Shown here: piece by piece, positions 7,121 through 26,629 of the stretch
Layout: each line of letters starts with the position of its first letter
How positions within the stretch are numbered: the first letter of the stretch is position 1
Source of the DNA: an uncultured Gammaproteobacteria bacterium
GTDB taxonomy: Bacteria > Pseudomonadota > Gammaproteobacteria > UBA9214
Assembly (NCBI GenBank): GCA_963773065.1
Contig: CAVYZN010000032.1
Span: forward strand, 128,001 to 192,000
DNA length: 64,000 nucleotides
Direction of reading: 5' to 3'
The notes under the pieces: generated by a model
The model's database searches: none
Seen by the model: only the letters and a program-made list of their open reading frames with translations
What the model was told of the DNA's origin: nothing
Made by a program: the position numbers and the translations under genes

Positions 7121-7462
7121 CTAAACATCATCTACATAAAGACGTTTTCCATATGAAAATCCGCTCAGCTTCCCTTCAGAGATCATTCGTTCTATATCCT
7201 CAATTGTTAAATCCCTAGAATCGGCGTACGATTCTACGAGAACCGGATTGGTTAAATATTGTGATGCTTTCCGTAAACCAAGCATATCCGCCGGAACAAG
7301 GATCCAATTGAATCCACCTACGAATGCACCATATAGCAAGATCTTTACAAAGCCAAATGTGCGCATGCTACTTGCTTCTGAATGTAATGAGTCGGCAATA
7401 ACTGCAAACAGTGAAAATGCGACAATTGTATCGACAACAAGCCGGCAGGGTGGTATCTGCAA
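7121..7462 (-). CDS. AT-rich hypothetical membrane protein
   Basis: 113-aa ORF in a low-GC stretch with hydrophobic segments; no family recognised. Confidence 0.4.
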   Translation of the reverse strand: MQIPPCRLVVDTIVAFSLFAVIADSLHSEASSMRTFGFVKILLYGAFVGGFNWILVPADMLGLRKASQYLTNPVLVESYADSRDLTIEDIERMISEGKLSGFSYGKRLYVDDV

Positions 7463-7512
7463 GGGCTGATGCAGGCTGGGGAGCGCAAGAGCGTGGAGCC
7501 GATGGCGGCGCG

Positions 7513-8074
7513 AGTAAAGGAAGAATAAACGCCCTTTTCCCCCAAGTCCACGGGTAGTTCACAGGCAACACGCAGCCATTCGCCCTCTCGCTGTCCACGA
7601 AATCGGTCGGAATTTTACCACTGCCGGGGAAATCATTCCCTTTCCTTCTCTCCCTTCCCTCAATCTCTGGCCGATTCCGGCCAGCAGGCAAACCGATACC
7701 CTACCACTTCTGCAAAGTCGTCAACTCGAGTTGAATAGTCGGTTTTTTAGGTTCAGTCTAACAGGCCCACTTGCCTGCTTGTGCGTTGCATGCTGACCGG
7801 CGGCGGCGCACGGCTTTGGGGTAATGGCATCGATTCTGTTGCGGCGGCTTTTTCGTTCAGGTGGGTAAGTATTTTCTTGAGGGCCTGCCCCACGAAGTGC
7901 TTTGGGCATTACCACCGGATCTTCGATGCAGGCAAGAGCCTGCCCCGCGAGCGCAGCGAGTGCTTTGGGCATGATCCTGACCGCGCCACCGCATGCGTGG
8001 CAGGTCTCGATGTCGATGTCGATTAAAGGCCTACTTTTGGTGAACACCCGCTTGAGGCGTTGTGCCGAAGTCAT
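7513..8074 (-). mobile_element. IS91/ISCR-family remnant: 3' end of the transposase plus oriIS
   Basis: MT(S)AQRLKRVF..IDIETCHACGGAVRI..ACIEDPVV C-terminal motif; minus-strand GAAAAGGGCGTTTATTCTTCCTTTAC at 7513-7542 resembles ISCR oriIS ends. Confidence 0.85.
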
Positions 8075-8175
8075 CGAGGCGCGTCGCTTGGCGAGCCGCG
8101 CAGCGCCCCGAGCAGGCCCTTGAGGAGATCGATGGGCGTGGGCGGGCAGCCGGGGATCATCACGTCCACGGGCTC
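8071..8175 (-). pseudogene. C-terminal fragment of a NuoB/HyfI-type Fe-S small subunit
   Basis: PVDVMIPGCPPTPIDLLKGLLGAL matches the conserved PVD..IPGCPP motif; no upstream part present. Confidence 0.7.
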
Positions 8176-8955
8176 ACCGCCATCACCTTCGCGGGCCTGG
8201 GCGGCTTCTGGATCCTGTTCTATTCCTACTGGCTGCGCGACAAGGGCGCGGGCATGGCCTCGCACATCGGGCGCATCACCGGACCCATCGTGGGCAAGCC
8301 CGAGGCGGTGACGGCGGACGGCTACCTGCCCGAGGACACCCCCGCGGCGCGCGCCGAATGGCGGCGCTGGAACCGCTATCTCGGCGTGGACGCGTTCATC
8401 GGCGTGGGCGGCAACCTGCTGACCACGCTGCTCACCTGTCTGCTGGCCTATGCGCTGCTCTTCCCGCAGGGCCTGCTGCCGCAGGACTATGACCTTGCCG
8501 TGGTGCAGAGCCGCTTCTTCGAGGTGAGCTGGGGCGAGGCGGGGCGCATCCTGTTCCTGCTCGTGGCGGCGGCCTTCCTCACCGACACCTGGCTCGCCAC
8601 CGCGGATGCGGTGAGCCGCATGCAGGCCGACATCGTGCAGATCGTGTTTCCGCGCGCGCGGCGCCTGGCGCAGCGCCAGTGGTACTATGTATTCTTCGCG
8701 CTGCTGACCGTCGTCACCTGCCTCACCATGTTGCTGGACGCGCCCGGTCCGCTGATCCTGACCAGCGCCGTGATCGGCTTCGCGGGCACGGTGATCTTCC
8801 CGGCGGCGCTGTACCTGTTGAATCATCGCCGCCTGGCGCCGGCGCTGCCGGCCTGGGCGCGCCCCGCGCGCGGCGCGCGCTGGCTGCTGGGGATCGCCTT
8901 CCTGGCCTATCTGCTGCTGGCCGTCGCATATCTCTACGTAACGCTGCGCGGCTGA
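8172..8955 (+). pseudogene. 5'-truncated second copy of the NRAMP-like transporter
   Basis: Near-identical to 5329-6112; lacks the N-terminal ~215 codons. Confidence 0.9.
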
Positions 8956-9058
8956 CCGGCGCCGCGGCAATGGACCGCGGATATGCGAATAGAAATGGGC
9001 CACATTTTCCGTTGAGATACTAAGGTCCTTCCTTGATATAGCAACTTTGCAGGGGCAC

Positions 9059-9292: not shown

Positions 9293-10453
9293 TTGAAATC
9301 ACGATACCGGTCGGTGGCATGGTTGCTGGTGGCGGGCGCCCTGGCCGCGGGCTGTGGCAAGCAGGAGAGCGGCACGGCCGCCGGCGAGACGGTCGTCAGG
9401 ATCGGTTCGGTGGCGCCGCTCACCGGTCCGCAGGCCCACCTCGGCAAGGACAATGACAATGGCGCGCGACTGGCGATGGACGATATCAACGCCGCCGGGC
9501 TCACGCTGGGGGGCAAGCAGGCCCGCATCGAACTGATCAGCGAAGACGATCAGGCCGACCCGCGCATCGCGACCATCATCGCGCAGAAATTCGTCGATAA
9601 CGGCGTCGCCGGCGTGATCGGGCATCTCAATTCCGGGGCCACCATACCCGCCTCGAAGATCTACCACGATGCCGGCATACCGCAGATTTCCCCGTCCGCC
9701 ACCGCCATCGCCTATACCGCGCAAGGCTTCGAGACGGCCTTCCGGGTCATGACCAACGACGAGCAACAGGGCAAGGTGCTGGGGCAGTTCGCGGTCAACA
9801 CGCTGGGCGCGAAGCGGATAGCCATCATCGACGATCGCACCGCCTACGGCCAGGGGCTGGCGGATGAATTCGAAAAATCCGCCAGGGCCTCGGGCGCGCA
9901 GATCGTGACGCGGGAATTCACCTCCGACCGTTCCACGGACTTCATGGCGATCCTGACCTCGATCAAGGGCAAGGATCCGCAATTGGTGTTTTACGGCGGC
10001 ATGGACGCGCAGGGCGGGCCGATGGCGAGGCAGATGAAGGAACTGGGGCTCGGCGCGCGGCTGCTGGGCGCCGACGGCATGCAGACCGCCGAGTTCCTCA
10101 AGCTCGCGGGCGCGAATGCGGAAGGGGTGGTGGCCTCATCGCCGGGCTTGTCGCTCTCGGCCATGCCGGAGGGCCAGACGTTCAAGCAAAAATTCAACGC
10201 GCGTTACGGCGAGATCCAGAACTACGCGCCCTATGCCTACGATGCCGTGCAGGTGATGGTCGCGGCGATGCGCCGCGCCGATTCCGCCGATCCGCGGATC
10301 TACCTGCCGGAAATCGCCAGGACCGATTATCAGGGCGTGACCGGCCATATCCGCTTTGACGCCAAGGGCGATGTCGCGGGCGGCTATGTGACACTCTATC
10401 AGGTGAAGAACGGCGCCTGGCAGGTGCTCGAAACCGTCGAGAGCGGGAAGTAG
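9293..10453 (+). CDS. livK: Branched-chain amino acid ABC transporter substrate-binding lipoprotein
   Basis: LAAGC lipobox; EDDQADP, GVIGHLNSG, ISPSAT and YAYDA motifs. Confidence 0.9.
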   Translation: MKSRYRSVAWLLVAGALAAGCGKQESGTAAGETVVRIGSVAPLTGPQAHLGKDNDNGARLAMDDINAAGLTLGGKQARIELISEDDQADPRIATIIAQKFVDNGVAGVIGHLNSGATIPASKIYHDAGIPQISPSATAIAYTAQGFETAFRVMTNDEQQGKVLGQFAVNTLGAKRIAIIDDRTAYGQGLADEFEKSARASGAQIVTREFTSDRSTDFMAILTSIKGKDPQLVFYGGMDAQGGPMARQMKELGLGARLLGADGMQTAEFLKLAGANAEGVVASSPGLSLSAMPEGQTFKQKFNARYGEIQNYAPYAYDAVQVMVAAMRRADSADPRIYLPEIARTDYQGVTGHIRFDAKGDVAGGYVTLYQVKNGAWQVLETVESGK

Positions 10454-10669
10454 CCTATAGCCACGGAAGCACACGGAAGACATCGGACATGATGTTCCAG
10501 CTGACCATCGAATGTCCTAGGATGACTCTGATTGTCCGTGTGCCTTCGACCAGTCGGTCGCAAATGGACGTCATTATAGGAGACTGACACTCCCTTAAGC
10601 AAGCGCCATTACATCCCTCGCCCTGTCTCAGGTAAACTTCCCGCCCTGGCGGTATCGGACAGGTAAGCC

Positions 10670-11599
10670 ATGGAAATCTTCGCGCAGCAGATCATCAACG
10701 GCCTGGTGCTGGGCAGCGTCTACGCGCTGGTCGCGCTCGGCTACACCATGGTGTACGGCATCCTCGAACTCATCAACTTCGCCCACGGCGAGATCACCAT
10801 GATCGGCGCGATGGTGGCCCTGGCGGTGATCGGCGCCCTTGTCGGTGCCGGCGTGGAACTGCCGGGCATCCTCATTGCCGGACTGGGCCTGCTCGCCGCC
10901 ATCCCGGCGTGCATGACGCTCGGTTACTGCATCGAACGCATCGCCTATCGGCCGCTGCGCCGGGCGCCGCGGCTGGCGGCGTTGATCACCGCCATCGGCA
11001 TGTCCATCATCCTGCAGAACGTCGCCATGCTGATCTGGGGACGCCAGTATATTTCCTTTCCGCCGATCCTGCCGCAGGGCCGGCATGTCGTGTTCGGCGC
11101 GACCATCTCCGATGTGCAGATCGTGATATTGACCACCGCGACGGTGCTGATGTTCGCCCTGGTGCTGCTGGTGAGCAAAACCCGGCTCGGCCGCGCCATG
11201 CGCGCCACCGCGCAGGCGCCGCAGATCGCGGGGCTGATGGGCGTGAACGTCGATACGATCATTTCGCTGACCTTCGTCATCGGTTCGGCGCTGGCCGCGG
11301 TGGCGGGCGTGATGGTCAGCGCCTATTATGGCCTGGCGCATTACTACATGGGTTTCCTGCTGGGACTGAAGGCGTTCTCCGCCGCGGTGCTGGGCGGCAT
11401 CGGCAACCTCGCCGGCGCGATGCTCGGCGGTCTGCTGCTCGGCGTGATCGAGAGTCTGGGCGCCGGTTATATCGGCGATCTCACCGGCGGCTTTCTCGGC
11501 AGTCACTATCAGGATGTGTTCGCGTTCTTTGTCCTGATACTGGTGCTGGTGCTGCGGCCATCGGGTCTGCTCGGGGAACGTGTCGCTGAACGCGCCTGA
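10670..11599 (+). CDS. livH: Branched-chain amino acid ABC permease
   Basis: QQIINGLVLGSVYALVALGYTMVYG...NFAHGE. Confidence 0.95.
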   Translation: MEIFAQQIINGLVLGSVYALVALGYTMVYGILELINFAHGEITMIGAMVALAVIGALVGAGVELPGILIAGLGLLAAIPACMTLGYCIERIAYRPLRRAPRLAALITAIGMSIILQNVAMLIWGRQYISFPPILPQGRHVVFGATISDVQIVILTTATVLMFALVLLVSKTRLGRAMRATAQAPQIAGLMGVNVDTIISLTFVIGSALAAVAGVMVSAYYGLAHYYMGFLLGLKAFSAAVLGGIGNLAGAMLGGLLLGVIESLGAGYIGDLTGGFLGSHYQDVFAFFVLILVLVLRPSGLLGERVAERA

Positions 11600-12707
11600 C
11601 GCCCTTTCCAGGACCCGCCGGCGCAACGCCTGGCTGGGCTACCTGCTGTTGTGCCTGCTGCTGGCCGCGCTGCCGTTTATCGCCGATGCCGGACTGGGCC
11701 GCTCCTGGGTGCGCGTGCTGGATTACACGCTGCTCTACATCATGCTCTCCCTCGGCCTTAACATCGTGGTCGGCTACGCCGGCCTGCTCGATCTCGGTTA
11801 CATCGCCTTCTACGCCGTCGGCGCCTATCTCTACGCCCTGCTCGCCTCGCCGCACTTCGGTCTGCATCTGCCGTTCTGGCTGCTGCTGCCTCTGGGCGCC
11901 ATGACGGCCGCGCTGTTCGGCGTATTGCTCGGCACCCCGACCCTGCGGCTGCGCGGCGATTATCTCGCCATCGTCACCCTCGGCTTCGGCGAGATCATCC
12001 GTATCTTTCTCAACAACCTCAACGCGCCGGTCAACATCACCAATGGCCCCCAGGGCGTGAATCTCATCGATCCGATCGCCTTCGGGGGTTTTTCCCTGGG
12101 CAAGACCCACATCCTGTTCGGCGTCACGTTCAGCGCCGCGCATCAATATTACTACCTGTTCCTGCTGCTGGCGCTGGCGGTGATCTTCATTTCACTGCGC
12201 CTGCAGGACTCGCGCATCGGCCGCGCCTGGGTGGCGATACGCGAGGATGAAGTGGCGGCCGAGGCCGTGGGCGTCAACACGCGCAACATCAAACTGCTCG
12301 CCTTCGCCATGGGCGCGACCTTCGGGGGCGTGGCCGGCGGACTGTTTGCCGGCTTTCAGGGTTTCATCAGTCCCGAGAGCTTCAATCTCATGGAGTCGGT
12401 CATGATCCTGTGCATGATCGTATTGGGCGGCATGGGCAGCATCCCGGGCGTGATTTTCGGCGCGGTGCTGCTCACGGTGCTCCCCGAGTCGCTGCGCTAT
12501 ATCGGCGATCTGCAGCGCGCCACGCTGGGACGCATCGTGGTCGACCCTTCCGATCTGCGCATGCTGCTCTTCGGTCTCGCGCTGCTGGCGGTCATGCTCT
12601 ATCGCCCCGCCGGCCTGCTGCCCTCGGGGCTGCGCCGGCGCGAGCTGGCGGCGGAGGACGGCGTCGCCGAGCAGGAACAGGCCTCGGTGTACGATGCCCG
12701 GCGCTAG
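11580..12707 (+). CDS. livM: Branched-chain amino acid ABC permease
   Basis: GLNIVVGYAGLLDLGY, LRLRGDYLAIVTLGFGEI. Confidence 0.95.
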   Translation: MSLNAPDALSRTRRRNAWLGYLLLCLLLAALPFIADAGLGRSWVRVLDYTLLYIMLSLGLNIVVGYAGLLDLGYIAFYAVGAYLYALLASPHFGLHLPFWLLLPLGAMTAALFGVLLGTPTLRLRGDYLAIVTLGFGEIIRIFLNNLNAPVNITNGPQGVNLIDPIAFGGFSLGKTHILFGVTFSAAHQYYYLFLLLALAVIFISLRLQDSRIGRAWVAIREDEVAAEAVGVNTRNIKLLAFAMGATFGGVAGGLFAGFQGFISPESFNLMESVMILCMIVLGGMGSIPGVIFGAVLLTVLPESLRYIGDLQRATLGRIVVDPSDLRMLLFGLALLAVMLYRPAGLLPSGLRRRELAAEDGVAEQEQASVYDARR

Positions 12708-13489
12708 CCCGGCAACCGGCGGACCCTTGCTGTCGGTTGCCGCTGTGGGCAAGCGCTTCGGCGGCATCACCGCGCTGGATGGCGTTACGCTGTCCGTGCA
12801 GCATGGCGAAATCTACGGCCTGATAGGCCCCAACGGCGCCGGCAAGACCACCTTGTTCAATGTGTTCACCGGGCTGTACACGCCGAGCGCCGGCGCCGTC
12901 AGCTTTGCCGGTCATCCGCTGCGCGGCCTGAAACCGCATCAGGTCCTCGGCCTGGGTCTCGCGCGCACCTTCCAGAACATCCGCCTGTTCGCCAACATGA
13001 CCGCGCTTGGAGAATGTCATGGTTGGCCGCCATGCGCGCACCCATGCCGGCGTCTTGGGCGCCATTATCCGCGGTGCGCGCACGCGCGCGGAAGAGGCCG
13101 CGATCAAGGCGCGCGCCGGCGAACTGCTGGATCAGGTCGGCATCCGCGGGCAGCGCCGCACGCTGGCGAAAAATCTTTCCTACGGCGATCAGCGCCGCTT
13201 GGAGATCGCGCGCGCCCTGGCGAGCGAACCGCTGGCGCTGGCGCTGGATGAACCCGCCGCCGGCATGAATTCCGTCGAGCGTCAGGAGCTGACGCGTCTG
13301 ATCCGCCGCCTGCGCGATGAACTCCGGCTCACCATCCTGCTGATCGAACACGATGTGAAACTGGTGATGGGTTTGTGCGACCGTATCGCCGTGCTGGATT
13401 TTGGCGCGAAGATCGCCGAGGGCGCGCCGCGCGACGTGCAGAGCGATCCCCGCGTCATCGCCGCCTATCTCGGGAGCGAACCGGCGTGA
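12694..13489 (+). CDS. livG: Branched-chain amino acid ABC ATPase (one frameshift near 13008)
   Basis: GPNGAGKTT, ARTFQNIRLF, LSYGDQRRLEIARAL. Confidence 0.9.
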
Positions 13490-14199
13490 ACCAGCTGGAG
13501 GTGCGCAATCTGTCGGTCGCCTACGGCAACATACACGCGGTGCGCGAGGTGAGCATGGAATTGCGCGAAGGCGAGCAGGTCTGTCTCATCGGGGCCAACG
13601 GCGCGGGCAAGACCACCTTGCTCAAGGCCATCGCCGGCATGTTGCCGCCCGCGAGAGGCACGGTATATTTCCAGGGCATCGCGCTGACTGGCAAGCCATC
13701 CCATGAAATCGTGAGACTGGGCATCGCCCTGGCGCCGGAGGGCCGCGGCATTTTCGGCCGGCTTACCGTGGCGGAAAATCTCGCCATGGGCGCCTACATA
13801 CGTCGTGATTACGCGTCGATGCGCAGCGACACCCACATGGTGTTCGACCTGTTTCCGCGCCTCGCCGAACGCAAGGCCCAGCCCGCCGGTCTGCTCTCCG
13901 GCGGCGAACAGCAGATGCTCGCCATCGGCCGCGCCTTGATGAGCCGCCCGCGATTGCTGTTGCTGGATGAACCCAGCATGGGGCTCGCCCCGCTGCTGGT
14001 GCAAAAGATCTTCGACACCATCGGCCACATCGCCGCGCGCGGCGTCACCATGATCCTGGTCGAACAGAATGCCCGCCTCGCGCTTAAGGCGTGCAGCCGC
14101 GGTTATGTCATGGAAAGCGGCAAAATCACGCTGAGTGACAGCGCGCGGAATCTGATCGAGAGTCCGAAGGTGCGCCACGCCTATCTCGGCGAGGCCTAG
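13486..14199 (+). CDS. livF: Branched-chain amino acid ABC ATPase
   Basis: GANGAGKTT, LSGGEQQMLAIGRALM, LDEPSMGLAP; GTG start overlaps the livG stop. Confidence 0.93.
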   Translation: MNQLEVRNLSVAYGNIHAVREVSMELREGEQVCLIGANGAGKTTLLKAIAGMLPPARGTVYFQGIALTGKPSHEIVRLGIALAPEGRGIFGRLTVAENLAMGAYIRRDYASMRSDTHMVFDLFPRLAERKAQPAGLLSGGEQQMLAIGRALMSRPRLLLLDEPSMGLAPLLVQKIFDTIGHIAARGVTMILVEQNARLALKACSRGYVMESGKITLSDSARNLIESPKVRHAYLGEA

Positions 14200-14349
14200 C
14201 CCGCCTATCACCGGGCAGGCCCGTTCGAGTGCGCAACGATTTCAGGGCAACGCGTGATGGACTTAAGCATCCAGGGCAGGGCAAGCCGGACGGCATCATC
14301 CAGGCGGCGCCTCGCCATCCCGCCTCTTGGCGTCAACGCTCACCCAGTC

Positions 14350-16167
14350 AGAATGCCGAGAGCGCCGCGCTGCTGGTGGAGGCGCGTGTTCCCCAACAGC
14401 CGGTGCGCCAATGGGTATTGAGCTTTCCGTATTCCTTGCGTTTACTGTTCGCCAGCCGCTCGGGCGTGATGGGTCAGTTGCTGGGCATCGTCTACCATGT
14501 CATCGCCACGCACCTGATCAAGAAAGCCGGGTTTACCCGCAAGACGGCCCGCATCGGCGCGGTGACCTTGATCCAACGCTTCGGTAGCGCGCTGAATCTC
14601 AACATCCACTTGATGTGCATGGACGCACGAATGCCGCGGGCGCAGGGATGCGCAGGAGCGGCCCACATGCTCTTTCTGGATGGCGTCTACATCAATGGTG
14701 TCAATGGAACCTGCCAGCCGGTTTCAGTGGGTCAAGGCGCCGACCAACACCGATCTCACCCGGCTGGCCCTACACCATCGCCCGGCGCGTCGGTCGTTTG
14801 CTGGAACGGCAGGGATTGCTGGAACGCTATATCGACGACACGCGATGTGGACGACAGCTATCTGGCCGGAGAGGCTGTGGATGCGGGGCCGTTGGATCAG
14901 CTACTGGCTCACTCGATGATGTGCAGGGACGCACGAATGCCGCGAAGCGCATGGATGCGAGAGAGCGGCCACGTACCGCATCGCCGTAGGCGCCAGCCAA
15001 GGCCGCAAGGTGTTCGCCTAAAGCGCCTACTGTTGGCACCCTGCAGACCCTGCCCGCGTGCGACCCGGAGGATCAATTTGCGGACACGGTGGGCAAGGTG
15101 GCCGGCTTCTCGCTCCATGCCGAGGTGGCGGCGAGGGCGGATGAACGCCAGAAGCTGGAACGGTTTGGCTGGCACTGTGTCAGGGCGCAGCTTTCAGTGT
15201 AATGGGGCTATCCACCAGCGACGTACTGTCGCTGAACCTGCTCAGCCTCCAGCGGCCAATCCTTCCAGCTGCGATGACGAGGCTACATTGCCAGGCCGGC
15301 GGTATCGGAAAAGCGCCTGTCGCTCACTGCGAATGGTAACGTGCGGTACCAACTCAAGACGCCGTACCGCGAAAGCTTGCCCCGCGAGCGCAGCGAGTGC
15401 TTTGGGCATGGCACGACGCACGCCATCTTTGAGCCGCTGGATTTTGTCGCGCGGCTCGCTGCACTGGTGCCGAAGCCCCGGGTCAACCTGACGCGTTTCC
15501 ATGGCGTGTTTGCGCCGAACAGCCGGCACCGTGCGCGGGTGACGCCGAGCGGGAGGGGCAAGGGAAGCCGGCGTCCCTGGCAGGGGGATTCGGACGACGA
15601 GCAAACGCCCGCCGAACGCCGGGCATCGATGACCTGCACCCAAAGGGCATAAAGGCGCAGCGCCTGAAACGCGTATTTGGTATCGATATCGAGACTTGCC
15701 GGATCTGCGGCGGGTCGGTCAGGATCATGCCCAAAGCACTCGCTACGCTCGCGGGGCAGGCTCTCGCAGGGACGCACGAGGTAGGGCGACGCAGGATGCC
15801 GAAGCCGAGAGGAGCCGGCGGTGATGCCCAAATCACTTCGTGGGGCAGGCTCTCAAGAAGATCCTCAGCCACCTCGATGAGAAAGGCGCCTCGGCGGAAG
15901 CCTCACCGATGCCACCGTGCCGGGCGCCGCCACAGGCGGTCTTGTTCGACTGATACAGGCACCCGGGGGACAACCCGCGTCTGCGAGATCGAGCGACGCG
16001 GCAGGGAGGCGGCCGGTCTGAGGGTCAGAACATGTCCGAAAAGCTCACTGACGTGCGACGGGGATTCAGGCGGAAATCATGTTGAGGGGCAGATCGACGG
16101 CCGCCGGTGACGCTGATGACCGACGGATGGTTACTCGATCTGAGGAAAAGTTGGTTTATATCTTCTA
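14350..16167 (+). mobile_element. IS91/ISCR-family element, 5'-truncated transposase pseudogene with oriIS
   Basis: AESAALLV, PVRQWVLSFP, GAVTLIQRFGSALNLNIH.H, FEPLDFVARLAALVPKPRVNLTRFHGVFAPNS; oriIS-like GAAAAGTTGGTTTATATCTTCTA at 16143-16167; many small insertions. Confidence 0.9.
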
Positions 16168-17640
16168 AAGCGCCGCCGCAATTTCCATAAAGCTGTTCAA
16201 TCCAGCCTCAAGGTTTTCAATGATCTCCCCCGCCAGCTCATCCGGCTCCGGCAGGTTGTCTAGATCGGCCAGGCTTTTATCCTTGAGCCAGAAGATATCC
16301 AGACTGGTTTTATCCCGCGCTATGATTTGCTCGTAGCTGAATTTGCGCCAGCGTCCTTCCGGGTTGCTTTGCTCTCCCCATAGCTCTTTACGCTCATGGC
16401 GATTGAGCGGGTTATAGTAGGCAATGAATTCCTGTAAATCCTCGAAGCGTAGCGGTTTCTTTTTCAGGGTGTTGTGAATGTTGGTGCGGTAGTCGTAGTA
16501 CCAGACTTCCTTTGTCCACGGCTCTTTACTGGCTGCGCGGTTATCGAAGAACAGCACATTCGCCTTTACGCCGTTGGCGTAGAAGATGCCGGTGGGCAAG
16601 CGCAGGATGGTGTGCAGGTCGGTAGTTTCCAGCAACTTCTTGCGCACCGATTCACCCGCGCCGCCTTCAAACAGCACATTGTCCGGCACCACCACCGCCG
16701 CGCGTCCGGTGGTTTTCAGCATGGTGCGGATGTGCTGCACGAAGTTGAGCTGTTTGTTGGAAGTGGTCGCCCAGAAATCCTGCCGGTTGTAGGTCAGGTC
16801 GTCCTTCTCCTGTTCGCCTTCCTCATTGGTGAAACTCATCGCGCTCTTCTTGCCGAACGGCGGATTCGCCAGCACGTAGTCGAAGCGTTTTCCGCTATCG
16901 GCCATCAGCGCATCGTTAGGCGACACCATGCTCTCGCCGTCGATCTCGCCGATATTGTGCAAGAACATATTCATCAAAGCGAGGCGGCGGGTGCCTGCGA
17001 CAATCTCATTGCCGTAAAATGTCTCGTGCTTGAGAAACGCTTTCTGTTTCTTGTCCATCTGATGCGCCGCCACCAGAAAATCATACGCCGCCAAAAAGAA
17101 CCCGCCCGTACCGCAGGCCGGATCGGCAATGGTCTTGCTGGGTTCCGGACGCACGCATTCCACCATTGCTTTAATCAGCGCACGCGGCGTGAAGTATTGC
17201 CCCGCGCCGGATTTCGTATCCTCGGCATTGCGCTCCAGCAAACCTTCGTAGATGTCGCCCTTCACATCCGCGCCCATCGTCACCCATTGCGTTTCATTCA
17301 CCATGTCGATCAGGCGATACAGCTTGGCGGGATCCTGAATCTTGTTCTGCGACTTGGTGAAAATCTGTCCCAGCATCCCCGGCTTGTTGCCCAGCTCGCG
17401 CAGCAGCGTCATGTAGTGCACTTCCAACTCCGCGCCGCGCTTTGGCTTGAGACTTTGCCAGTTGTATTCCGCAGGAATGCCGACCTTGCGGTTGTAAGGC
17501 GGCTGGCTGTATTCATCCGCCATTTTCAGGAAGATCAAATAAGTGAGCTGCTCCAGATAGTCGCCATAGCTCACGCCATCATCTTTAAGGACAGTGCAGA
17601 AACTCCAGACCTTGGAAACGATGGATGCGGTTGCGTTCAT
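16165..17640 (-). CDS. hsdM: Type I restriction-modification N6-adenine methyltransferase
   Basis: GAGQYFTPR, DPACGTGGF and NPPF motifs; intact 491-aa ORF. Confidence 0.95.
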   Translation of the reverse strand: MNATASIVSKVWSFCTVLKDDGVSYGDYLEQLTYLIFLKMADEYSQPPYNRKVGIPAEYNWQSLKPKRGAELEVHYMTLLRELGNKPGMLGQIFTKSQNKIQDPAKLYRLIDMVNETQWVTMGADVKGDIYEGLLERNAEDTKSGAGQYFTPRALIKAMVECVRPEPSKTIADPACGTGGFFLAAYDFLVAAHQMDKKQKAFLKHETFYGNEIVAGTRRLALMNMFLHNIGEIDGESMVSPNDALMADSGKRFDYVLANPPFGKKSAMSFTNEEGEQEKDDLTYNRQDFWATTSNKQLNFVQHIRTMLKTTGRAAVVVPDNVLFEGGAGESVRKKLLETTDLHTILRLPTGIFYANGVKANVLFFDNRAASKEPWTKEVWYYDYRTNIHNTLKKKPLRFEDLQEFIAYYNPLNRHERKELWGEQSNPEGRWRKFSYEQIIARDKTSLDIFWLKDKSLADLDNLPEPDELAGEIIENLEAGLNSFMEIAAAL

Positions 17641-17662
17641 GTATTAACCTCGAAAATAATTT

Positions 17663-17729
17663 GTCATTCCCGTGAAAGCGGGAATCCAGTTTTTTAACTC
17701 ACTGGATGCCGGATCAAGTCCGGCATGAT
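17663..17729. repeat. REP-type hairpin pair GTCATTCCCGTGAAAGCGGGAATCCAG / CTGGATGCCGGATCAAGTCCGGCATGA
   Basis: Two palindromic units in inverted arrangement between fic and hsdM. Confidence 0.75.
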
Positions 17730-17812
17730 GGGTTTCTGCAATCGGTCAGCAGGCTGCTGACCGATTCGGCACTTAACTTATTACCCTCTTTATTACCCTT
17801 ACTAAAGGGTAA

Positions 17813-18859
17813 TTACCCTTTCTTTTTCCAACGTGCCGCAGGCCCACGGCCTTGGCATTCGATGACATTTGCGTTTTGCTGTTCTCTCAAGACCCGCCGC
17901 ACCATGTCTTTGCTCACACCGGGGCATGCCTGCTCCACCTGCGAAACGGTGAATTCACCCACGAATCGGTTGATGGCCGCCAACACCAAATCCGTCTTCG
18001 AGCCACGTGGCGCTCTCACCTCGCCCACGCGCTCGGCAAACTCGCGATATGCCAACTTCAGAATGGACAACACGTAGTTGATGTAAGGCCAAGGATCATG
18101 CTTGCCCTCATGCCATCCCTGCGAACTCTGCTCCAGCGTCTCGTAATAGCGATCCTTATTTTCCTCGATCAATCGCTCAAGGCTGATGTAGCGCCCCACC
18201 TCATTACCCAACTGATAGCACTGAAGTAGCAGCGCCAACCGGGACACACGCCCGTTGCCATCGCGGAAAGGATGAATGCACAGAAAATCCAGATTGAATG
18301 CCGCCATCGCAATGAGCGGATGAATCCAGCGCTCATCCAGGCAATGTTGCCAATCGGCAACCAGATTCGCCATGGCTGCCGGTGTGCCCGCCGCAGGCAC
18401 CGGGCGGAAACGCACCCGCTCGCGCCCATCCGGGTAGCGTTCGATGATGTCGCCGTCTTTCTCCTTGTACTGCCCCGCATCCCAGATTTGCCCGCGCGCC
18501 AGCCGGTGTAGTTCACGTATCGTCGCCTCGCTCACAGGCATGCGCGTAGCGCCTTCGTGGATGAGCTGCAATGCATCGCGATAACCGCGCACCTCTTCTT
18601 CATCGCGATCCCGGAACAAAGGCTTGGCCGCAACCAGCACATCACGCACCCGTGACGGATCGACCGATACCCCTTCAATCCGGTTGGAAGAAACCGCACT
18701 TTCAATCAGCGCATGTTCCCACAATGTCTTGAGCCGCTGCGGCGATTGCTGTGTATAAAGCGCCTGCTTGCCGCGAAACTCGCCAAGATCGGCGAGATAC
18801 CAGGAGGTGCCGGCGGGAATGGAAAAATCTTTTACGGTGAAAAGGCGCAGGGTGTTCAT
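17813..18859 (-). CDS. Fic-domain protein with C-terminal HTH
   Basis: Canonical HPFRDGNGRVSR motif; SSNRIEG inhibitory-like motif; start overlaps the hsdS stop. Confidence 0.92.
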   Translation of the reverse strand: MNTLRLFTVKDFSIPAGTSWYLADLGEFRGKQALYTQQSPQRLKTLWEHALIESAVSSNRIEGVSVDPSRVRDVLVAAKPLFRDRDEEEVRGYRDALQLIHEGATRMPVSEATIRELHRLARGQIWDAGQYKEKDGDIIERYPDGRERVRFRPVPAAGTPAAMANLVADWQHCLDERWIHPLIAMAAFNLDFLCIHPFRDGNGRVSRLALLLQCYQLGNEVGRYISLERLIEENKDRYYETLEQSSQGWHEGKHDPWPYINYVLSILKLAYREFAERVGEVRAPRGSKTDLVLAAINRFVGEFTVSQVEQACPGVSKDMVRRVLREQQNANVIECQGRGPAARWKKKG

Positions 18860-20097
18860 GTTGGCATACCTTCCGTTTCAGAAACACCTTTATTGCGACG
18901 CGATCGCCCCCCTTTAGCAAAGGGGGGTTGGGGGGATTTTGCCCGCTCCGCCTTGATGCGCGCCAGCAGCACCGAGGCAGGTTCATCGTGCGGGTCTTGC
19001 GGCACCAATTGGCCGGAGAAGGCTTTTTTCAGGATGGACTGACGCAGGGCTTCGGCTTGTTGCAGGGATGTGGTGATGGTTTGGTCGAGTTGGTCAGCTA
19101 TCGGAGAAGTTTGCATCGACTGGCATCTTGCAAGACCTCGTCTATTCTTCGGCTATACTGCAAAGAGGGAAAAGCAGATCTGACATCACGTTCTCTTGTG
19201 TTAATGCAGCTGGTCTTTTAACGCCATGTATTTCCTGAACCTCAAGTTTTTCTGAGTAGATGCTGCATTGACTGAGAACATCACAGGATAATGATATCCA
19301 CAAAGTACACGACCGAATAGCCTGACGCAGAAACACGAATCGGCCTGATGTTTGATTATGAGAAGCTTCAATATCTACGAAGCGCAGTCTGGCCACCGAG
19401 CTTTCTCGTGTCACGAATGATCAGCAAGCAATGTTACCTGATCACAACTGGGTGATTCTTCAGTCGACTGCATTCTTATAGCCTCAGTAGCTTATTTTTT
19501 CCTTTGTCTTCATTAAATTCTGGCGAAGGCAACACTCTCAACACTGCAATACCACATGGAACATCGCTATTCCACAAAGTCAGCTACTTTTCAGATTCGA
19601 TCCGAAAGGGCCATCATGAAACATCTGACATACGTATTGCCCGAGCTTCACCCACCTCCACCCCTCCGGCACTTCAGGCAATTCGGCCAGTTCTTCGGCG
19701 GTGAGCGGCGGCAGAGATTTCGGGGCTTTGGGTTTAAAGTCCCCTGCCTCCTTTTCAAAGGGGGATTAGCAAGGTGGCGGCGCTGGGGTCTCCCTTTGTA
19801 AAAGGGGGATCGAGGGGGATCTCTCCCAGTCAGCGAGTTGTTGCTGGTAGCGTTGCGCGCGTTCTTGCTGGATGCGCTTTTGCAAGGCAGCGGCGGTTTC
19901 GAGTTTGTCCTGATTCTCCACGCGCCACTGCGCGGTGAGCTTTCCTTCGAAAGCGTGTTTCAGCAGCGCTTGGCGATACACCTTGAGCTGCGCGCGGGCG
20001 GTCTTCAGGTTTTCGATGCCCTTATCCAGATCGGAAAACAACTCCTCTATTTTGGTGACGATGCGGTGTTGTTCGGGGAGTGGGGGTAAACCGAACT
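18856..20097 (-). pseudogene. hsdS: Type I R-M specificity subunit: TRD1 missing, TRD2 unreadable
   Basis: LPPLPEQHRIVTKIEELFSDLD, YRQALLKHAFEGKLT, PEGWRWVKLG, LRQSILKKAFSGQLVPQDP; many stops in 19140-19600. Confidence 0.85.
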
Positions 20098-22812
20098 CTA
20101 GTTCCTCCCGCTCTGCCCGTCGAACGGCGACATTTCAAGATCGCCGCGTTCGATGTGGAACGAGTTGGCGACGTGGTCGCGGATCATGCGCAACCAGTCC
20201 ATTTGTTCCTCGTTGAACTTTTCGCTGCCGCCGGAGTGGTGTTTCATCACCCAGTTCTGGAAGTTGCGGCGCACGGTGTCGTCGAAGGTGGAGAGCTTGG
20301 CATCCATGCCGCACACGCGGCGGATGAGTGCGACTAATGCCGTCAGTTCGCTGATGGGCTGTGCTCCCTTTATAGTCATCCAACTGGCAGTAGGCTTGCC
20401 ACACGCGCAACGGAGCGAGTTTGGGTTTGTCGGCTTTGAGCTTGTCCAGCACTTGGCGGATCAGGTCAAAGCTGAGTTCGCGCCGCCGGTAAGGCTGGCT
20501 AAAGAAAATAGTCAGCGCTTCAATATTGTTCTGATTGGTTTTCAGGTAATCGGCGAATTCATCGGTGAGGGCTTGCGCGTTGTTGGCGGCGTCTTTGTCC
20601 CATTCAGCGCGTAACACCTTGTCGATGTTGTCGTGGTCGATGGTTTGTTCCTTGTCGCGGCGGATGGTGTCGATGAAGTTCGACCAGTTCGCCATTCAGA
20701 AGACCCGCAGCGGCACTCACTAATTGCTGTTGCGCCAATTCGCGCTTTGCGTCTCCGGGATCGGTGCCGATGGGTTGCCCGGCAACTCCAGGGCTTTGGC
20801 TTCGATGTTGTCGGCATCGATGGCGGCGAACAGTTTGCCGACCAGCTGGGTGAGTTCCATGCCTCCGGCAGCCTGCCGGATTTGCCGTTGTTCATCGGTG
20901 CTGAGTTGTTTATTGAGACGCGCCAGCCGTCCGGCCAGTGATGACAGTGTCTTCATCCGTCGCGCCCATCATCAGGCTCATAGCCAAGTCTTTGAGCGGC
21001 ACGGTGGGCTTCGTGATGAGCGGCTGGCTGGCGGTTTTCAGCGACTTGGTGACACCGATGGCATCGACAATCACATAGTGGGTCTTGGCACTGACGGCGG
21101 AGGGCGTGACTTTTTTCAGGTCGTCATGTCCAGCGTGCGTGTGCCCCGGCCTTTCATCTGCTCGAAGTAGTTGCGGCTTTTCACGTCGCGCATGAACAGC
21201 AGGCACTCCAGCGGCTTCACATCCGTGCCGGTGGCGATCATGTCCACGGTGACGGCAATGCGTGGATAGTAGGCGTTGCGAAAATTTGCCAGCACCGATT
21301 TAGGGTCTTCCTCGTCTTGGTAGGTGAGCTTTTTGCAGAAGGCGTTGCCCTCGTCAAATTCTTCGCGCACGGCCTGGATGATGTCGTCGGCGTGGCTGTC
21401 GGTCTTGGCGAAGATCAGAGTTTTCGGAACTTCGGTGCGGCCCGGGAAAATCTCCGGCAGTTTTTCGCGAAAGGTGCGGATGACGGTGCGTATTTGATCG
21501 GGATTGACGATGTTGCGGTCAAGCTGCGTGGCGGAATAGGCTTCGTCTTTGTCCTGCTGTTCCCAGCGTTTTTTGCGGGTGAGCTTTTCGCGCTTTTCCA
21601 CTTGCTGGTGCGCATTGATTTGCGCACCCTGCTTGGTGATTGCGGTTTCGATCACATAGATTTCATTGCCGACATTCACCCATCGGCCACGGCTTTTTCA
21701 TGGCTGTAATCGCTGACCACGTTCTTTTTGAAAAAGCCGTAGGTGCGGTTGTCCGGCGTGGCGGTGAGGCCGATCAGGCTAGGCGTCGAAATAATCGATC
21801 ACCTGTTGCCACAGGTTGTAGATGGAGCGGTGGCATTCATCAATAAAAATGAAATCGAAAAACTCCGGCGGAACTTTTCCGTTATACACCACCGGCATGG
21901 GTTTCCTTGGGCTGCGCCAGTTCCGCCGGGTTGATCTCTTCGGCGGCTTCGTCTAACTCCTTGATCTTTCAAAATAGAGTACAGCCGCTGGATGGTGCTG
22001 ATGCACACCTGACTGTCCTTGGCGACAAACGACGATTTGAGCCGCTGCACGGTGTACAGCTCGGTGAATTTGCGGTTATCGTCGAGCGGCACGTAGGACA
22101 TCATTTCCTGTTCGGCTTGTTCGCCGAGATTTTTGGTGTCGACCAGAAACAGGATGCGTTTGCCGTGCGCATATTTGAGCAAGCGGTAAATGGAAGTGAT
22201 GGCAGTGTAGGTTTTGCCCGCGCCGGTCGCCATCTGGATCAGGGCGCGGGGGCGGTCGGCCTTGAACGAGGCTTCCAGATTGGTGATGGCGATTTCCTGG
22301 CAATCGCGCAGGCGCAATTCCTTGGCCGGGCGCTGGTTCGGGTTGAGCGGCGGGATGTGCTGCAAGCGCTCGCGCAAGCTGACACCCTGCGTCAGCCATT
22401 CCTTGAGCGTTTCCGGGCGGTGGAAGTTGAACACCTCGCGTGAACGCGGCTTGGGTTCGCGCGCATCGGTGAAGCGGGTGATGACGCCGGTGCTTTCGTA
22501 GAGAAAGGGCAAAGGCTCCTTGTTGTTGACCCACTTCAGTTTGGCCGCCGCATAGCTTTCGGTTTGTGTTTCATGGGTGGTGAGTCGCTGCCCTTCTTCC
22601 TCGCGCTTGGCCTCGATCACGCCCACCGCTTTTTTGTCGACGAACAGCACATAGTCCGCCGGGCCGACATCGGTCTGGTATTCGCGCACCGCCTGCCCCA
22701 GCCCGGCATTCAGGTCAATTTTCTTGTTGTGCTGAACTGTCCAACCCGCCTGCTTCAACAGCGCGTCGATAGTGTCGCGGGCTTTTTGCTCGGGGTTCTG
22801 GTTTTCAGTCAT
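20098..22812 (-). CDS. hsdR: Type I restriction endonuclease R subunit (multiple frameshifts; extreme C-terminus probably deleted)
   Basis: GPADYVLF..VIEAK nuclease motif, MATGAGKT, DECH, TVDMIATGTDV and EQMKGRG helicase motifs across the ORF pieces. Confidence 0.88.
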
Positions 22813-22943
22813 TTCTTCGAACCTGCATGCAGCACCTGACGGCAATTAGCAATAGGAACAGACAGTTATTATACATGTTCGGCCCGGCGTATAAGGTTGC
22901 CAGGGTAGCACTCATTTGCCCCACACCCTACCGGACACCAAGC

Positions 22944-23453
22944 CCGCGCAGGCGCCGCAAATCGCGGGGCTGATGGGCGTGAACGTCGACACGATCATTT
23001 CGCTGACCTTCGTCATCGGCTCGGCGCTGGCCGCGGTGGCGGGCGTGATGGTCAGCGCCTATTATGGCCTGGCGCATTACTACATGGGTTTCCTGCTGGG
23101 ACTGAAGGCGTTCTCCGCCGCGGTGCTGGGCGGCATAGGCAACCTCGCCGGCGCGATGCTCGGTGGTCTGCTGCTCGGCGTGATCGAGAGTCTGGGCGCC
23201 GGTTATATCGGCGATCACACCGGCGGCTTTCTCGGCAGTCACTATCAGGATGTGTTCGCTTTCTTTGTCCTGATACTGGTGCTGGTGCTGCGGCCAGCGG
23301 GTCTGCTCGGGGAACGTATCGCTGAACGCGCCTGACGTCCTTTCCAGCACCCGCCGGCGCAACGCCTGGCTGGGCTACCTGCTGTTGTGCCTGCTGCTGG
23401 CCGCGCTGCCGTTTATCGCCGATGCCGGACTGGGCCGCTCCTGGGTGCGCGTG
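22944..23453 (+). repeat. 510-bp direct duplicate of livH 3'/livM 5' (original at 11208-11717)
   Basis: Constant offset of 11736; about 11 substitutions counted by eye, no indels seen. Confidence 0.92.
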
Positions 23454-23534
23454 TATGCGCCTCGCAATCGGGAAAATCTGTTCTCGCTCTCCCACCATGC
23501 TCGCTACGATCACCTAAGTCCGACAGGCTGCTAG
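23454..23534. mobile_element. One arm of a MITE-like element ending ...CCTAAGTCCGACAGGCTGCTAG
   Basis: Abrupt junction with the livM copy; terminal CTAG overlaps the stop of the convergent gene; recognised by resemblance only. Confidence 0.45.
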
Positions 23535-26500
23535 TCGCCGCGGCTCACCCAGTCAGGATGCAACGGCAGCAACAGGGGCCCAATCTGTTTGAGCAGTTCC
23601 ACGGGCAGAGAACTCGTGAACTTGAATGCGGCCGCCTGCTCGCCCGGTACATAGGCAGAAACCGCGCCGTAGAAACGATCGCCGATGAAAAATACGAAGG
23701 TTGCCGTACGATTGACCACGCGCTCACGCACCAGCCGTCCCGCTTCATCGAACATTTCCATGCGGTGATCGCCGGTGCCGGTCTTGCCGCCGACCGGAAT
23801 GGTGACCCCCTCCGCGGGATGCAGGCCACCCGCCAGGCGGACCGCGGTACCATGTTCGACCACATCCAGCAGCGCCCCCCGCACGACCTCGGCGATCTCC
23901 ACCGGCAGCACCCGTTCGGGTTTCGAACCCCGGTATCGCAACACCGTGTCATAGGGCGTGTCCGCGGCGAAACGCAGTTCGTCCATCCGGATCGCCGGCG
24001 CGCGGATTCCCCCGCGCAGGATGATCCCCATCAGCTCCGCCAGTGCGGCGGGGCGATCGGCCGAACTCCCGATCGCCGTGGCGTAGGAGGGCGTCAGGTA
24101 AGTGAACGGATAACCCAGGCGAACCCAGGCGGCGTGGATGCTGTTGAAGGCCTCGATCTCGAGCAGGGTGCGAATGCGTATATCCTGGCGGCTTTTGCTC
24201 TTGGTCTTGAACAACCAGGCATAGACGTCGATCCGCTCCTGCGCGCTCGCCGTCGCACAAGCCTCAAAGTTCGCCTCGGGGTACTGCTGCAGGTATGTCA
24301 CCAGCCACAACTCGAGGGGATGTACCTTGGCGAGATAGCCGCGGTCCATCAAGGTGTAGCTATCCGGGCCGTAGTTCCGGAATAGCCGCTCGACGACTGT
24401 CTCGCCCAGACTGGCGCCGGGAAGAGCCCCCTTGAGGAATTCGGCGAACTTGATCTCATCGGCTTCCGGATGGATGCTGCGATAGGCGATGCTGAGCGGC
24501 ACCGGCGCCGCGCGCACGCTGTCCACCAGCAGGTTGAAGCGCTCCGCCGGCGTCTTGCCGGCGTACTTGTGGTAGAACCTCCGCAGGAAAGTCTTGCCTT
24601 CGCGATCGGCGAAGCGCGTCAGGTATTCAACGCGCCGCGGCTCGGCGGCATCCTCCAGCAGGCGACGGCCGCTCTCGGAACGGTTCAAATGGTACCTGAC
24701 GATGTCGCGCATCAGGCGCACGAACGGCAGGTTGATCGAATCGCGGAAGGCCTGCCGGACGGTGACTATCTTGCCGTTGTCCTCCTTTTTGAAGTTGACG
24801 AAGTGGTGCGCGCCGCCGCCGGTGATGAATGTTTCCGCGGGGCTCGCCGAATATTTACGGTCCATTGCGGCATCGAGCAGGCCGCGCAGATCATGCGCCG
24901 GTTTATGGATCAGGTAGTCGAGTACCCAGGCGCGCAACTTGTCCTCCGGCGAGGGTTTGATAGCACGCAGGTCATCGGCGGACAACGGCGCATACTCGTT
25001 GTAGAGACTGGTCATGATCTCAAGGTAATGCACCAGCGTGCGCAGCTTGGCGGTCGAGCCGAGATCCAGCCTGACACCCTCGTTGATGTCGAAGGGCTCG
25101 GGAAAGTTGTCCGCCTGCACGCGCAGCACGTTAACATTGCCCGTCGCCTCATAAAGCGAGAAGCTGTAGATCACCCGCTCCAGGCCTTCCTTGGACTCCA
25201 GCAATCGATGTCCCATCAGATTCGCTTCCTTCACCTGCGCGGGGTCCTTGAGTTCCAGCAGTCGTGCGGCCACCGCCCGCTGAACCGGGTAGTCGAGTGT
25301 GCTGGCGATGCTGAGATCAAGGCGGTCGAGGTCGTAGAAACGCGTGAGACCCAGCATCGACAACAGGCGGGAACGGATCATGTAGGCGGTTTTGGCGGAA
25401 CGCATCTCGTGCGTATAGACGAGCGGCTCGCTGCTGGGGACGGCGAGCCGTTGCGCCAGCACGGCATCGCGGAACAACGGATCGATGATGCCCTCCTGTG
25501 CGAGCAGTCTGACATATTCGTCAACCCGCGCCGCAAGCGTGGGAAAGCCAGTGCGGCCGAGGAAATAGGTCGGTCGCTGCTGCGCGAGCAGCAGGCTCAA
25601 CACCCGGCGGTAGGCGAGCGCACTCTGCTCCAGCAGTTCCACCGGCGGTTTCCCGTGAAAACCGAGCAAGCGGTTTACCTCGCCCGGATCGGCGTCGAAC
25701 CAGACACGCAGACCATCCTGCAGTCCGTGTATTTCGCCATAACCGGACCGTGCGGCGAGCGGCACGCCATTGAGGTAGGCGCGGACGATCTCCCGGCGCG
25801 CTTCCAGGTTGTGCGGGCCACCGAGGTAGGCGCGCAGCGAAGCGCTGAGGACCTGGCGGAGCTTTTCGGCGATCGTTGGGGTTACACCCCGGTCGGAGTG
25901 GCGGAACTTCTCCAGTTGCGTCGCCAGGGTACTTCCCCCGGCGGCGTTGAGGTGTGGATCGAAAACCTGTTCGACCTGATCCGTCAGCGCCTGCCCCAGT
26001 CTTTCCCAGGCGATCGCCGGGTTGCGCCGCGGCAAGTCTGAGTTCACCACGCCGCGATCTTCAATGAAGGCGAGCGTGTCGACGATCAGCGGCGGGATCG
26101 CTCCGAAGCGCTCGTAGATGGCGCGCGGATAGCTGCTGGAGAAGATGGGTGTACCCCGCCGATCCAGGATCTCCAGACCGGCTTGCTGCTTCTCGGGATA
26201 GAGGGGGAAGATCCCCAGGTCGAACGCATGCTCCATCTGCGGTGAAACCCGCGCCTGTGCCTCGATGGCATACCCCTTTTTCTGGAGAGCGGCCGTCCAC
26301 TGGGGAAGATGCGTGTAGCCAAGACGCTGATCGTATGGGCCCGCGGCCGGAAACAGCATGCGCGGATTCGGTCCCGATGCCTGCCTGAATCCCATGTGAT
26401 CCGCAAGGTGCGCCAGTACCAAGGACTGCACATACGAGGTTCTGGCCTCGGCAGCGACGAGAACCGCCGCAACCAGCGCCACGATCAGCCAGAAATACCG

Positions 26501-26629
26501 GCGCGAATCCCGCGGTGGCGGCGCGGCCTGCGCTGGTTCGGGGTTCGAGCCGGCTATGCCCTGCGTGTCGCTGTCAGTGACTTGATTCGGCAGGAATTCG
26601 TAGACGTTGTCCTGGGTGGATGATCGCAT
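23531..26629 (-). CDS. Large bifunctional transglycosylase/transpeptidase (class A PBP-like)
   Basis: N-terminal TM; IEDR, GGSTLATQLEK and EKLRQ GT motifs; STAK, SIN and KTGT TP motifs. Confidence 0.85.
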   Translation of the reverse strand: MRSSTQDNVYEFLPNQVTDSDTQGIAGSNPEPAQAAPPPRDSRRYFWLIVALVAAVLVAAEARTSYVQSLVLAHLADHMGFRQASGPNPRMLFPAAGPYDQRLGYTHLPQWTAALQKKGYAIEAQARVSPQMEHAFDLGIFPLYPEKQQAGLEILDRRGTPIFSSSYPRAIYERFGAIPPLIVDTLAFIEDRGVVNSDLPRRNPAIAWERLGQALTDQVEQVFDPHLNAAGGSTLATQLEKFRHSDRGVTPTIAEKLRQVLSASLRAYLGGPHNLEARREIVRAYLNGVPLAARSGYGEIHGLQDGLRVWFDADPGEVNRLLGFHGKPPVELLEQSALAYRRVLSLLLAQQRPTYFLGRTGFPTLAARVDEYVRLLAQEGIIDPLFRDAVLAQRLAVPSSEPLVYTHEMRSAKTAYMIRSRLLSMLGLTRFYDLDRLDLSIASTLDYPVQRAVAARLLELKDPAQVKEANLMGHRLLESKEGLERVIYSFSLYEATGNVNVLRVQADNFPEPFDINEGVRLDLGSTAKLRTLVHYLEIMTSLYNEYAPLSADDLRAIKPSPEDKLRAWVLDYLIHKPAHDLRGLLDAAMDRKYSASPAETFITGGGAHHFVNFKKEDNGKIVTVRQAFRDSINLPFVRLMRDIVRYHLNRSESGRRLLEDAAEPRRVEYLTRFADREGKTFLRRFYHKYAGKTPAERFNLLVDSVRAAPVPLSIAYRSIHPEADEIKFAEFLKGALPGASLGETVVERLFRNYGPDSYTLMDRGYLAKVHPLELWLVTYLQQYPEANFEACATASAQERIDVYAWLFKTKSKSRQDIRIRTLLEIEAFNSIHAAWVRLGYPFTYLTPSYATAIGSSADRPAALAELMGIILRGGIRAPAIRMDELRFAADTPYDTVLRYRGSKPERVLPVEIAEVVRGALLDVVEHGTAVRLAGGLHPAEGVTIPVGGKTGTGDHRMEMFDEAGRLVRERVVNRTATFVFFIGDRFYGAVSAYVPGEQAAAFKFTSSLPVELLKQIGPLLLPLHPDWVSRGD

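Follow-up and report, generated by a model that had tools for sequence, protein, structure and literature searches.

How did a decayed type I restriction-modification (R-M) operon come to lie between two closely similar segments of an amino acid transporter operon? The question is raised by a 64,000-nucleotide stretch of DNA from an uncultured gammaproteobacterium, referred to here as the window (G000:C32:128001-192000). G000 is this genome, a metagenome-assembled genome (MAG) of 3.84 Mb in 33 contigs (the C-numbers), 90.9% complete with 6.3% contamination. In the window, the operon livK-H-M-G-F is followed by the remnant of an ISCR-type transposase gene with its oriIS-side end, by a cargo of R-M and Fic genes, and by a partial second copy of livH and livM. 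Adjacent to this liv module and in the opposite orientation, a module built on a gene called X is a newly recognised second case of the same layout. The liv/X mosaic resembles the complex class 1 integrons of ISCR1 but is not one. The best reading, held with moderate confidence, is that ISCR-linked circles were inserted by homologous recombination, as in the Toleman model.

The liv operon, the ISCR remnant and their cargo

The features of the liv module, with the basis of each assignment in brackets, are as follows.

9293..14199, plus strand: livK-H-M-G-F ABC transporter operon (Pfam)
9293-10453, plus strand: livK (Pfam)
10670-11599, plus strand: livH (Pfam)
11580-12707, plus strand: livM (Pfam)
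12694-13489, plus strand: livG, in two frames (Pfam)
13375-14199, plus strand: livF (Pfam)
11208..11717, plus strand: left copy of a 510-bp repeat, livH 3' / livM 5' (alignment)
14355..15953, plus strand: ISCR remnant #3, an ISCR2/ISVsa3-like Y2 HUH transposase from residue ~104 to its end (Pfam, tblastn)
15954..16167, plus strand: non-coding oriIS-side end of ISCR#3, ~210 bp after the transposase stop at 15953 (homology to a copy on C2)
16165..17640, minus strand: hsdM, an intact open reading frame (ORF) of 491 aa (Pfam)
17813..18859, minus strand: Fic-domain gene, an intact 348-aa ORF (Pfam)
18880..20089, minus strand: hsdS remnant in two frames (comparison with related loci)
20107..22812, minus strand: hsdR, a pseudogene as assembled (frame analysis, related loci)
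22813..22943, no strand: spacer of 131 bp, from the hsdR start to the right liv copy (alignment)
22944..23453, plus strand: right copy of the 510-bp repeat, livH 3' / livM 5' (alignment)
23454..23534, plus strand: one arm, or half, of a ~170-bp hairpin MITE (miniature transposable element with inverted repeats); deletion breakpoint and right edge of a variable island (repeat comparison)
23531..26629, minus strand: transglycosylase-domain (penicillin-binding-protein-like) gene (Pfam, synteny)

The two 510-bp segments form a direct repeat with a fixed offset of 11736, 11 mismatches and 0 gaps, and their identity drops to background beyond both ends. The original prediction, made from the sequence alone, had put the second copy at about 11 substitutions and no indels, which the alignment reproduces. 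Between the copies lie livM-G-F, the ISCR2-like remnant with its oriIS-side end and the 6.8-kb type I R-M/Fic block, cargo and spacer together measuring 6776 bp. The predicted succession of first copy, ISCR, oriIS, cargo and partial second copy is borne out by this alignment, by tblastn and by the comparison with the C2 copy. Among the 65 ORFs scanned with Pfam (17 + 32 + 16), the domain set of a LIV-type branched-chain amino acid ABC transporter is complete: a binding protein, a pair of BPD_transp_2 permeases and a pair of ABC ATPases. Near 13005, livG is split into its two frames by a 1-base frameshift. One base from the 22943/22944 junction stands CAAG, the IS91-type target tetranucleotide; its estimated chance of occurrence there is ~5%, and it was not used as evidence.

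The transposase assignment rests on two matches. The Pfam profile Y2_Tnp is matched at 15284-15523 with 54.4 bits against a cut-off of 20.9, over profile positions 113-179 only, and tblastn aligns residues 104 to ~489 of a 498-aa IS91-family reference with 14355-15932, confirming the IS91/ISCR transposase remnant that had been proposed to follow liv. Over a piece of 82 aa, identity to the IS91-family/ISVsa3 (ISCR2-type) transposases carried by thousands of plasmids is 74%. The first ~103 residues of the reference are absent in tblastn, as is the terIS side: the truncation falls near codon 104, and 14200-14354 is unmatched by other ISCR copies. What remains is broken into at least four frame pieces, interrupted by in-frame repeat insertions of 40-50 bp. 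ISCR#3 is thus placed in the ISCR/IS91 family by its HUH Y2 transposase gene; neither an intact frame nor a terIS end was found in it.

Two families of short repeats touch these remnants. A 42-bp repeat lies within ISCR transposase remnants in both orientations (15369-15410, 15726-15767, 7941-7973, G000:C28:121750-121791, C7:2811-2843) and contributes 13-14 in-frame residues; several ISCR copies have it at one common position, and ISCR#3 alone has it at another. A family of ~46-52 bp (14611-14663, 14917-14944, 4530-4635, C6:149158, C23:7231) splits the HUH-like motif region of the ISCR#3 transposase and recurs as tandem copies a short way into the gene X ORF from its 5' end.

The position of the oriIS-side end is fixed by a second copy. 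Bases 15994-16165 (172 bp) are 93.6% identical to G000:C2:12863-12692, and this homology terminates at the hsdM stop codon, 16165-16167. The C2 end has the tip ...CCTATAC, which is read in five of the best-matching oriIS-like ends in the genome. From the other side, HsdM shares 75-93% aa identity with homologues in 80 related loci from many phyla, and in most of the first 16 loci listed the R-M DNA homology runs from ~16155-16190 to ~22751-22816, from hsdM stop to hsdR start. Its edge falls within a few to ~25 bp of the ISCR#3 end point in most of these 16, and the edge at the hsdR start is reached where the related locus extends that far. Because R-M homology stops at the hsdM stop, the ISCR end abuts the natural end of the R-M operon. 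A megablast search of 14100-23600 against plasmids returned distant hsdR and hsdM matches only, at 74-78%. G000 holds a second, divergent type I R-M locus with a Fic gene (G000:C11:309174-325906; 68-75% DNA identity).

The cargo is in decay. As assembled, hsdR carries at least seven frame changes and has its last ~25 codons deleted, while hsdS lacks its N-terminal ~133-158 residues and its pieces matched no Pfam family. Relative to loci L039-L041, a deletion of ~0.46-0.5 kb spans the 3' end of hsdR and, in hsdS, the first target-recognition domain. Instead of a complete type I R-M gene set there is an intact hsdM, a partial and split hsdS and a frameshifted hsdR; to judge by these genes, the system is dead as assembled. 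Relatives' contigs in four metagenome runs show 1-2-base differences near several of the hsdR frame-change sites. Homopolymer error is unsupported as a simple cause, most of the indels lying outside homopolymers; sequencing error in general could underlie them.

Other genes of the window are split or partial as well, namely AsmA (36391-38555), an HlyD-type adaptor (41126-42147), an AcrB-type pump (42692-45580) and KdpA (1851-3404), reflecting either a pseudogene-rich genome or indel errors of the assembly, so that part of the frameshifting could be assembly error. The ~0.5-kb hsdR/hsdS deletion, unlike some of the frameshifts, cannot be. Two further features of the window are unconnected with the finding: a match to a group II intron domain at 61849-62099 (Rfam RF02005, 113.5 bits) and a tRNA-Phe gene at 40629-40704.

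At its far end, the right liv copy is joined at 23454 to the centre of the ~170-bp MITE, which is complete at two C11 sites and multi-copy in three congeners. This joint implies a deletion that took the other MITE arm together with everything after livM codon 46, in agreement with the earlier suggestion that the right copy had been shortened at a MITE-like arm. No microhomology was seen at the 11717/MITE breakpoint. The transglycosylase-domain gene that follows is the first gene to the right of the island that is syntenic with congeners.

A second module within a variable island

Comparison with relatives shows that both modules belong to a variable island. Four congeners were compared, G002, G003 and G004 among them, and 54 genomes sampled the order. 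In G002 and G003, the homologues of C32:~116227 and C32:~151562 are only about 130 bp apart; the flanks are joined directly, and ~35 kb is therefore absent there. The variable stretch is G000:C32:116300-151545, or window about -11700 to ~23540-23545. It is missing from 2 of the 2 congeners in which the junction is assembled, the other two being uninformative at the site. It contains a sensor kinase, a multicopper-oxidase fragment, kdpE/D/C and a broken kdpA, Sel1, gene X, liv, ISCR remnants and the R-M block, with three oriIS-like ends (C32:120514 and window 7514 and 16167). Both cargos have 55% GC, against 63-69% in the flanking genes. A hairpin MITE of ~120 bp, with 45-nt arms of 96% complementarity, lies 5' of livK (9056-9177) and at the left edge of the island (C32:116397-116519); it has ~10 further sites in G000 and occurs in congeners too.

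These comparisons bear directly on the original prediction, which took liv for a core housekeeping operon and made it the landing pad for an ISCR element delivering defence genes. The layout itself and the host-like GC content at third codon positions of liv (0.85-0.87) speak for this version. Yet close liv DNA occurs in 2 of the 54 genomes, G000 itself and G004 (97% identity, on a 3.5-kb contig), and the operon lies inside the stretch missing from G002 and G003. The liv genes are therefore accessory rather than housekeeping genes in their native place, and livG is frameshifted. With hsdR and hsdS broken and partly deleted, delivery of defence genes finds no better support, and neither does an active element: ISCR#3 lacks its 5' third and its terIS side. 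A core landing pad for working defence genes is thus very improbable. The empty-site comparison that had been proposed succeeded for the island as a whole, absent in G002 and G003; an empty liv site was not found.

A self-comparison of the genome brought up a second duplication, that of gene X. The features of this module are the following.

4499..6143, plus strand: gene X, a predicted membrane protein with a 537-aa ORF at 4499-6112 (ORF, no Pfam family matched)
5329..6143, plus strand: X copy 1 of the duplication, the gene X 3' end (genome self-comparison)
6144..7513, minus strand: cargo 2, 1.37 kb, 55% GC, small ORFs (ORF scan, Pfam)
7514..8092, minus strand: ISCR remnant #2, transposase residues 421-489 (8092->7801) and an oriIS-like end (tblastn)
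7531->7514, minus strand: oriIS-like end of ISCR#2, CGTTTATTCTTCCTTTAC (end-motif comparison)
8093..8171, minus strand: filler of 79 bp between ISCR#2 and X' (Pfam below cut-off)
8172..8986, plus strand: X', a partial second copy of gene X, its 3' end and ~30 bp (self-comparison)

In the reading direction of ISCR#2 (minus strand), X' comes first, followed by ISCR#2, its oriIS-like end, the 1.4-kb cargo and X. The duplication is a direct repeat of 815-821 bp with 19 substitutions and 0 indels (97.6-97.7% identity). Cargo 2 encodes one nucleotidyltransferase with a weak likeness to AbiEii (E 1e-3, short of the Pfam cut-off), and the filler gives a weak match to a NuoB-like (Oxidored_q6) fragment (E 5e-4, 20.2 bits, below the cut-off of 27). 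ISCR#2 and ISCR#3 share only ~70% DNA identity, which means that two different elements were involved, and an adjacent second module of like layout makes an ISCR-linked process more credible. Self-comparison of the genome gives 54 near-repeat rows of at least 250 bp, of which only the liv and X repeats bracket an oriIS-like end; no bracketing repeat was seen in this list for the other oriIS-like ends.

The divergence of the duplicates is informative about their origin. Each pair is 2.2-2.3% divergent. Of the 8 livH-only sites that differ, 6 are third codon positions (binomial p 0.02), and of the 15 differing X coding sites 10 are (p 0.009), which makes 16 of 23 combined (binomial p 4e-4 against a neutral expectation of one third). 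This skew indicates that the copies diverged under purifying selection, as working genes in separate lineages. When the two liv copies are compared with congener G004, 10 of their 11 differences turn out to be private to the right one. On this sequence evidence the duplicates look like alleles from two lineages, which fits import followed by homologous recombination.

The same counts weigh against a segmental duplication in place, followed by neutral decay, with the ISCR remnants incidental. Direct repeats are frequent in this genome, as the 54 rows attest, but neutral decay predicts one third of the differences per codon position, and the two repeats agree in enclosing an oriIS-side end, with the parts in the same relative order. 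This origin is hardly credible.

Strain-like divergence in both pairs also invites an artefact, in which the assembler chained reads of two co-occurring strains, ~2% apart, into false duplications. The bin seems to hold parts of another related strain: multi-kb matches at 93-97% identity join C24/C25 with C27, C18 with C19, C29 with C30, C1 with C20 and C9 with C10, the C24/C27 near-duplicate extending over 16.8 kb, and the contamination estimate points the same way. The source reads are absent from the public sequencing runs searched, none of which contains the stretch (best share of sampled words 0.10). Against this, the junctions on both sides of each copy are unique to it and unique sequence separates the copies, whereas misjoins would be expected inside repeats rather than at their ends. 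The differences are spread evenly over the repeats with no switch point, and a second-strain version of the island is absent from the bin. The 379-kb contig is syntenic with congeners on both flanks. A false duplication is accordingly judged improbable.

Proposed circle insertion and possible one-ended transposition

The window holds the right-hand portion of the decaying ~35-kb island. Under the preferred reading, insertion of ISCR-linked circles by homologous recombination, the island would have grown through repeated acquisitions linked to ISCR elements. In each event, circular DNA would have brought in an ISCR together with its oriIS, the cargo next to these and a piece of liv (or X) from a donor lineage ~2.3% diverged. 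A single homologous crossover with the resident liv (or X) would then have duplicated the shared segment. Later, a deletion ending inside the MITE would have removed the rest of the right liv copy, and further decay would have cost the ISCR its 5' third and inactivated hsdR, hsdS and livG. In the Toleman circle-plus-recombination model for ISCR1, as described in PMC7707992 and PMC3575428, rolling-circle products formed aberrantly become circles, which recombination in the 3' conserved segment (3'-CS) rescues.

The evidence for this sequence of events is the layout. Both exact-register repeats enclose an ISCR remnant and the oriIS-side end belonging to it, ordered and oriented as predicted, and in both modules the foreign part starts with the ISCR and the cargo starts at the oriIS tip. 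A duplicated anchor around foreign DNA is the footprint that entry of a circle by one homologous crossover leaves. The third-position skew, the differences private to the right liv copy and the low GC of both cargos speak for this reading as well. The data show the anatomy of the locus, its place in a variable island, the allele-like character of the duplicates and the decay; the circle, its rolling-circle origin and the crossover are what we infer from this arrangement. No crossover point stands out in the left liv copy, where the count of differences from G004:C321 per 200 bp varies between 2 and 13 and shows no clear step.

Several observations weigh against circle insertion. The model predicts that the right liv copy continues into livM-G-F; it stops short, and an additional deletion is required. 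The terminal oriIS 18-mer of ISCR#3, GGTTTATATCTTCTAAAG, is degenerate, set beside the ...CCTATAC tip, and differs from the C2 end in at least six positions. The boundary of the predicted oriIS-like end at the hsdM stop is upheld by the C2 homology, and the end itself is a candidate oriIS. No full-length or intact ISCR transposase was found anywhere in G000, all copies being fragments. ISCR-like or liv-like sequence accompanies 0 of the 80 related R-M loci. Neither a circle, nor a donor, nor a recipient with an empty liv state was found, and an exact scan of metagenome contigs gave 0 matches each for the hsdR-spacer/liv' and oriIS/hsdM junction words. The four metagenome runs compared yielded short contigs of relatives with 90-95% likeness over the R-M genes and bridged zero junctions, a result neutral as to the correctness of the assembly. 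The second strain represented among the bin contigs counts here too. Finally, PMC6218425 states that, as of 2018, ISCR transposition had not been shown experimentally.

The layout can also be explained by transposition without homologous recombination. Two separate one-ended rolling-circle events would have placed liv-ISCR units of differing length, from two lineages, on either side of a resident R-M operon; the right unit would later have lost everything past livM codon 46, and X' would mark where an 8-kb unit (8172-16167), picked up upstream of ISCR#3, has its distal end. According to PMC3575428 and PMC7707992, one-ended transposition yields variable distal ends. X', spacer, liv and ISCR#3 do form one uninterrupted 8-kb block, with a novel junction at its left end (8172), and ISCR-like remnants are common in all four congeners. 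Such events would nonetheless have had to leave one liv unit 6.8 kb from another and an X' unit 2 kb from X, which asks for two coincidences within a single island. Moreover, the left liv copy runs unbroken into livH 5' and livK, as it would after a homologous crossover and not after an insertion. One-ended transposition is thus possible but unlikely.

Relation to known systems and meaning

A comparison with ISCR1 complex (sul1-type) class 1 integrons shows both the likeness and its limits. The order of segment, ISCR, oriIS, variable cargo and partial second segment copy is met twice here, at liv and at X, and the origin proposed for those integrons in PMC3575428 and PMC7707992, an aberrant rolling-circle product rescued by homologous recombination, is the one favoured here. 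In contrast, an integrase or sul1-type (dihydropteroate-synthase) domain was found in 0 of the 65 Pfam-scanned ORFs, and the 5' and 3' conserved segments (5'-CS/3'-CS: intI1, qacEdelta1, sul1) are missing. The anchors are an accessory transporter operon and a gene for a predicted membrane protein, the element is truncated and ISCR2-like (74% aa identity over 82 residues), and the cargo is a decayed R-M operon rather than a resistance gene.

ISCR2 / ISVsa3 (IS91 family, Y2 HUH) gives the best protein matches to the element itself. The transposase order and C-terminal motifs align, and both have a non-coding end of ~210 bp after the stop codon with cargo starting at its tip. The window's copy differs in its identity of ~50-74% over the aligned pieces, in the loss of ~103 first codons and the terIS side, and in its frameshifts and small repeat insertions. 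The cargo has the gene order of type I R-M operons, hsdR-hsdS-(fic)-hsdM, and loci L044 and L046 also include a Fic gene; unlike these operons, it has a frameshifted hsdR, lacks ~0.46-0.5 kb and has ISCR and liv neighbours, which none of the 80 related loci has.

To our knowledge, ISCR elements have been studied almost only beside antibiotic resistance genes. It is the layout of ISCR1 integrons that underlies the model of circle formation and homologous rescue. Among the papers listed for ISCR with type I restriction, or for ISCR with direct repeats and one-ended transposition, none was seen to deal with this layout outside resistance contexts. Since all parts of the locus are decayed, its value is historical and comparative, not functional; it is an example of neither a working defence island nor a core-gene landing pad.

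What the locus does offer is an integron-free footprint found twice in one island of an environmental MAG, with accessory-gene anchors and allele-like copies, and hence an independent natural example supporting the model. Tentatively, environmental ISCR-type elements may build islands as ISCR1 builds complex integrons, with any shared accessory gene as anchor, and the two back-to-back modules of equal divergence may record repeated circle-plus-crossover exchange between sister lineages. If this is true, the order of gene, ISCR, oriIS, cargo and partial gene would be a general, searchable signature of rolling-circle-mediated island growth.

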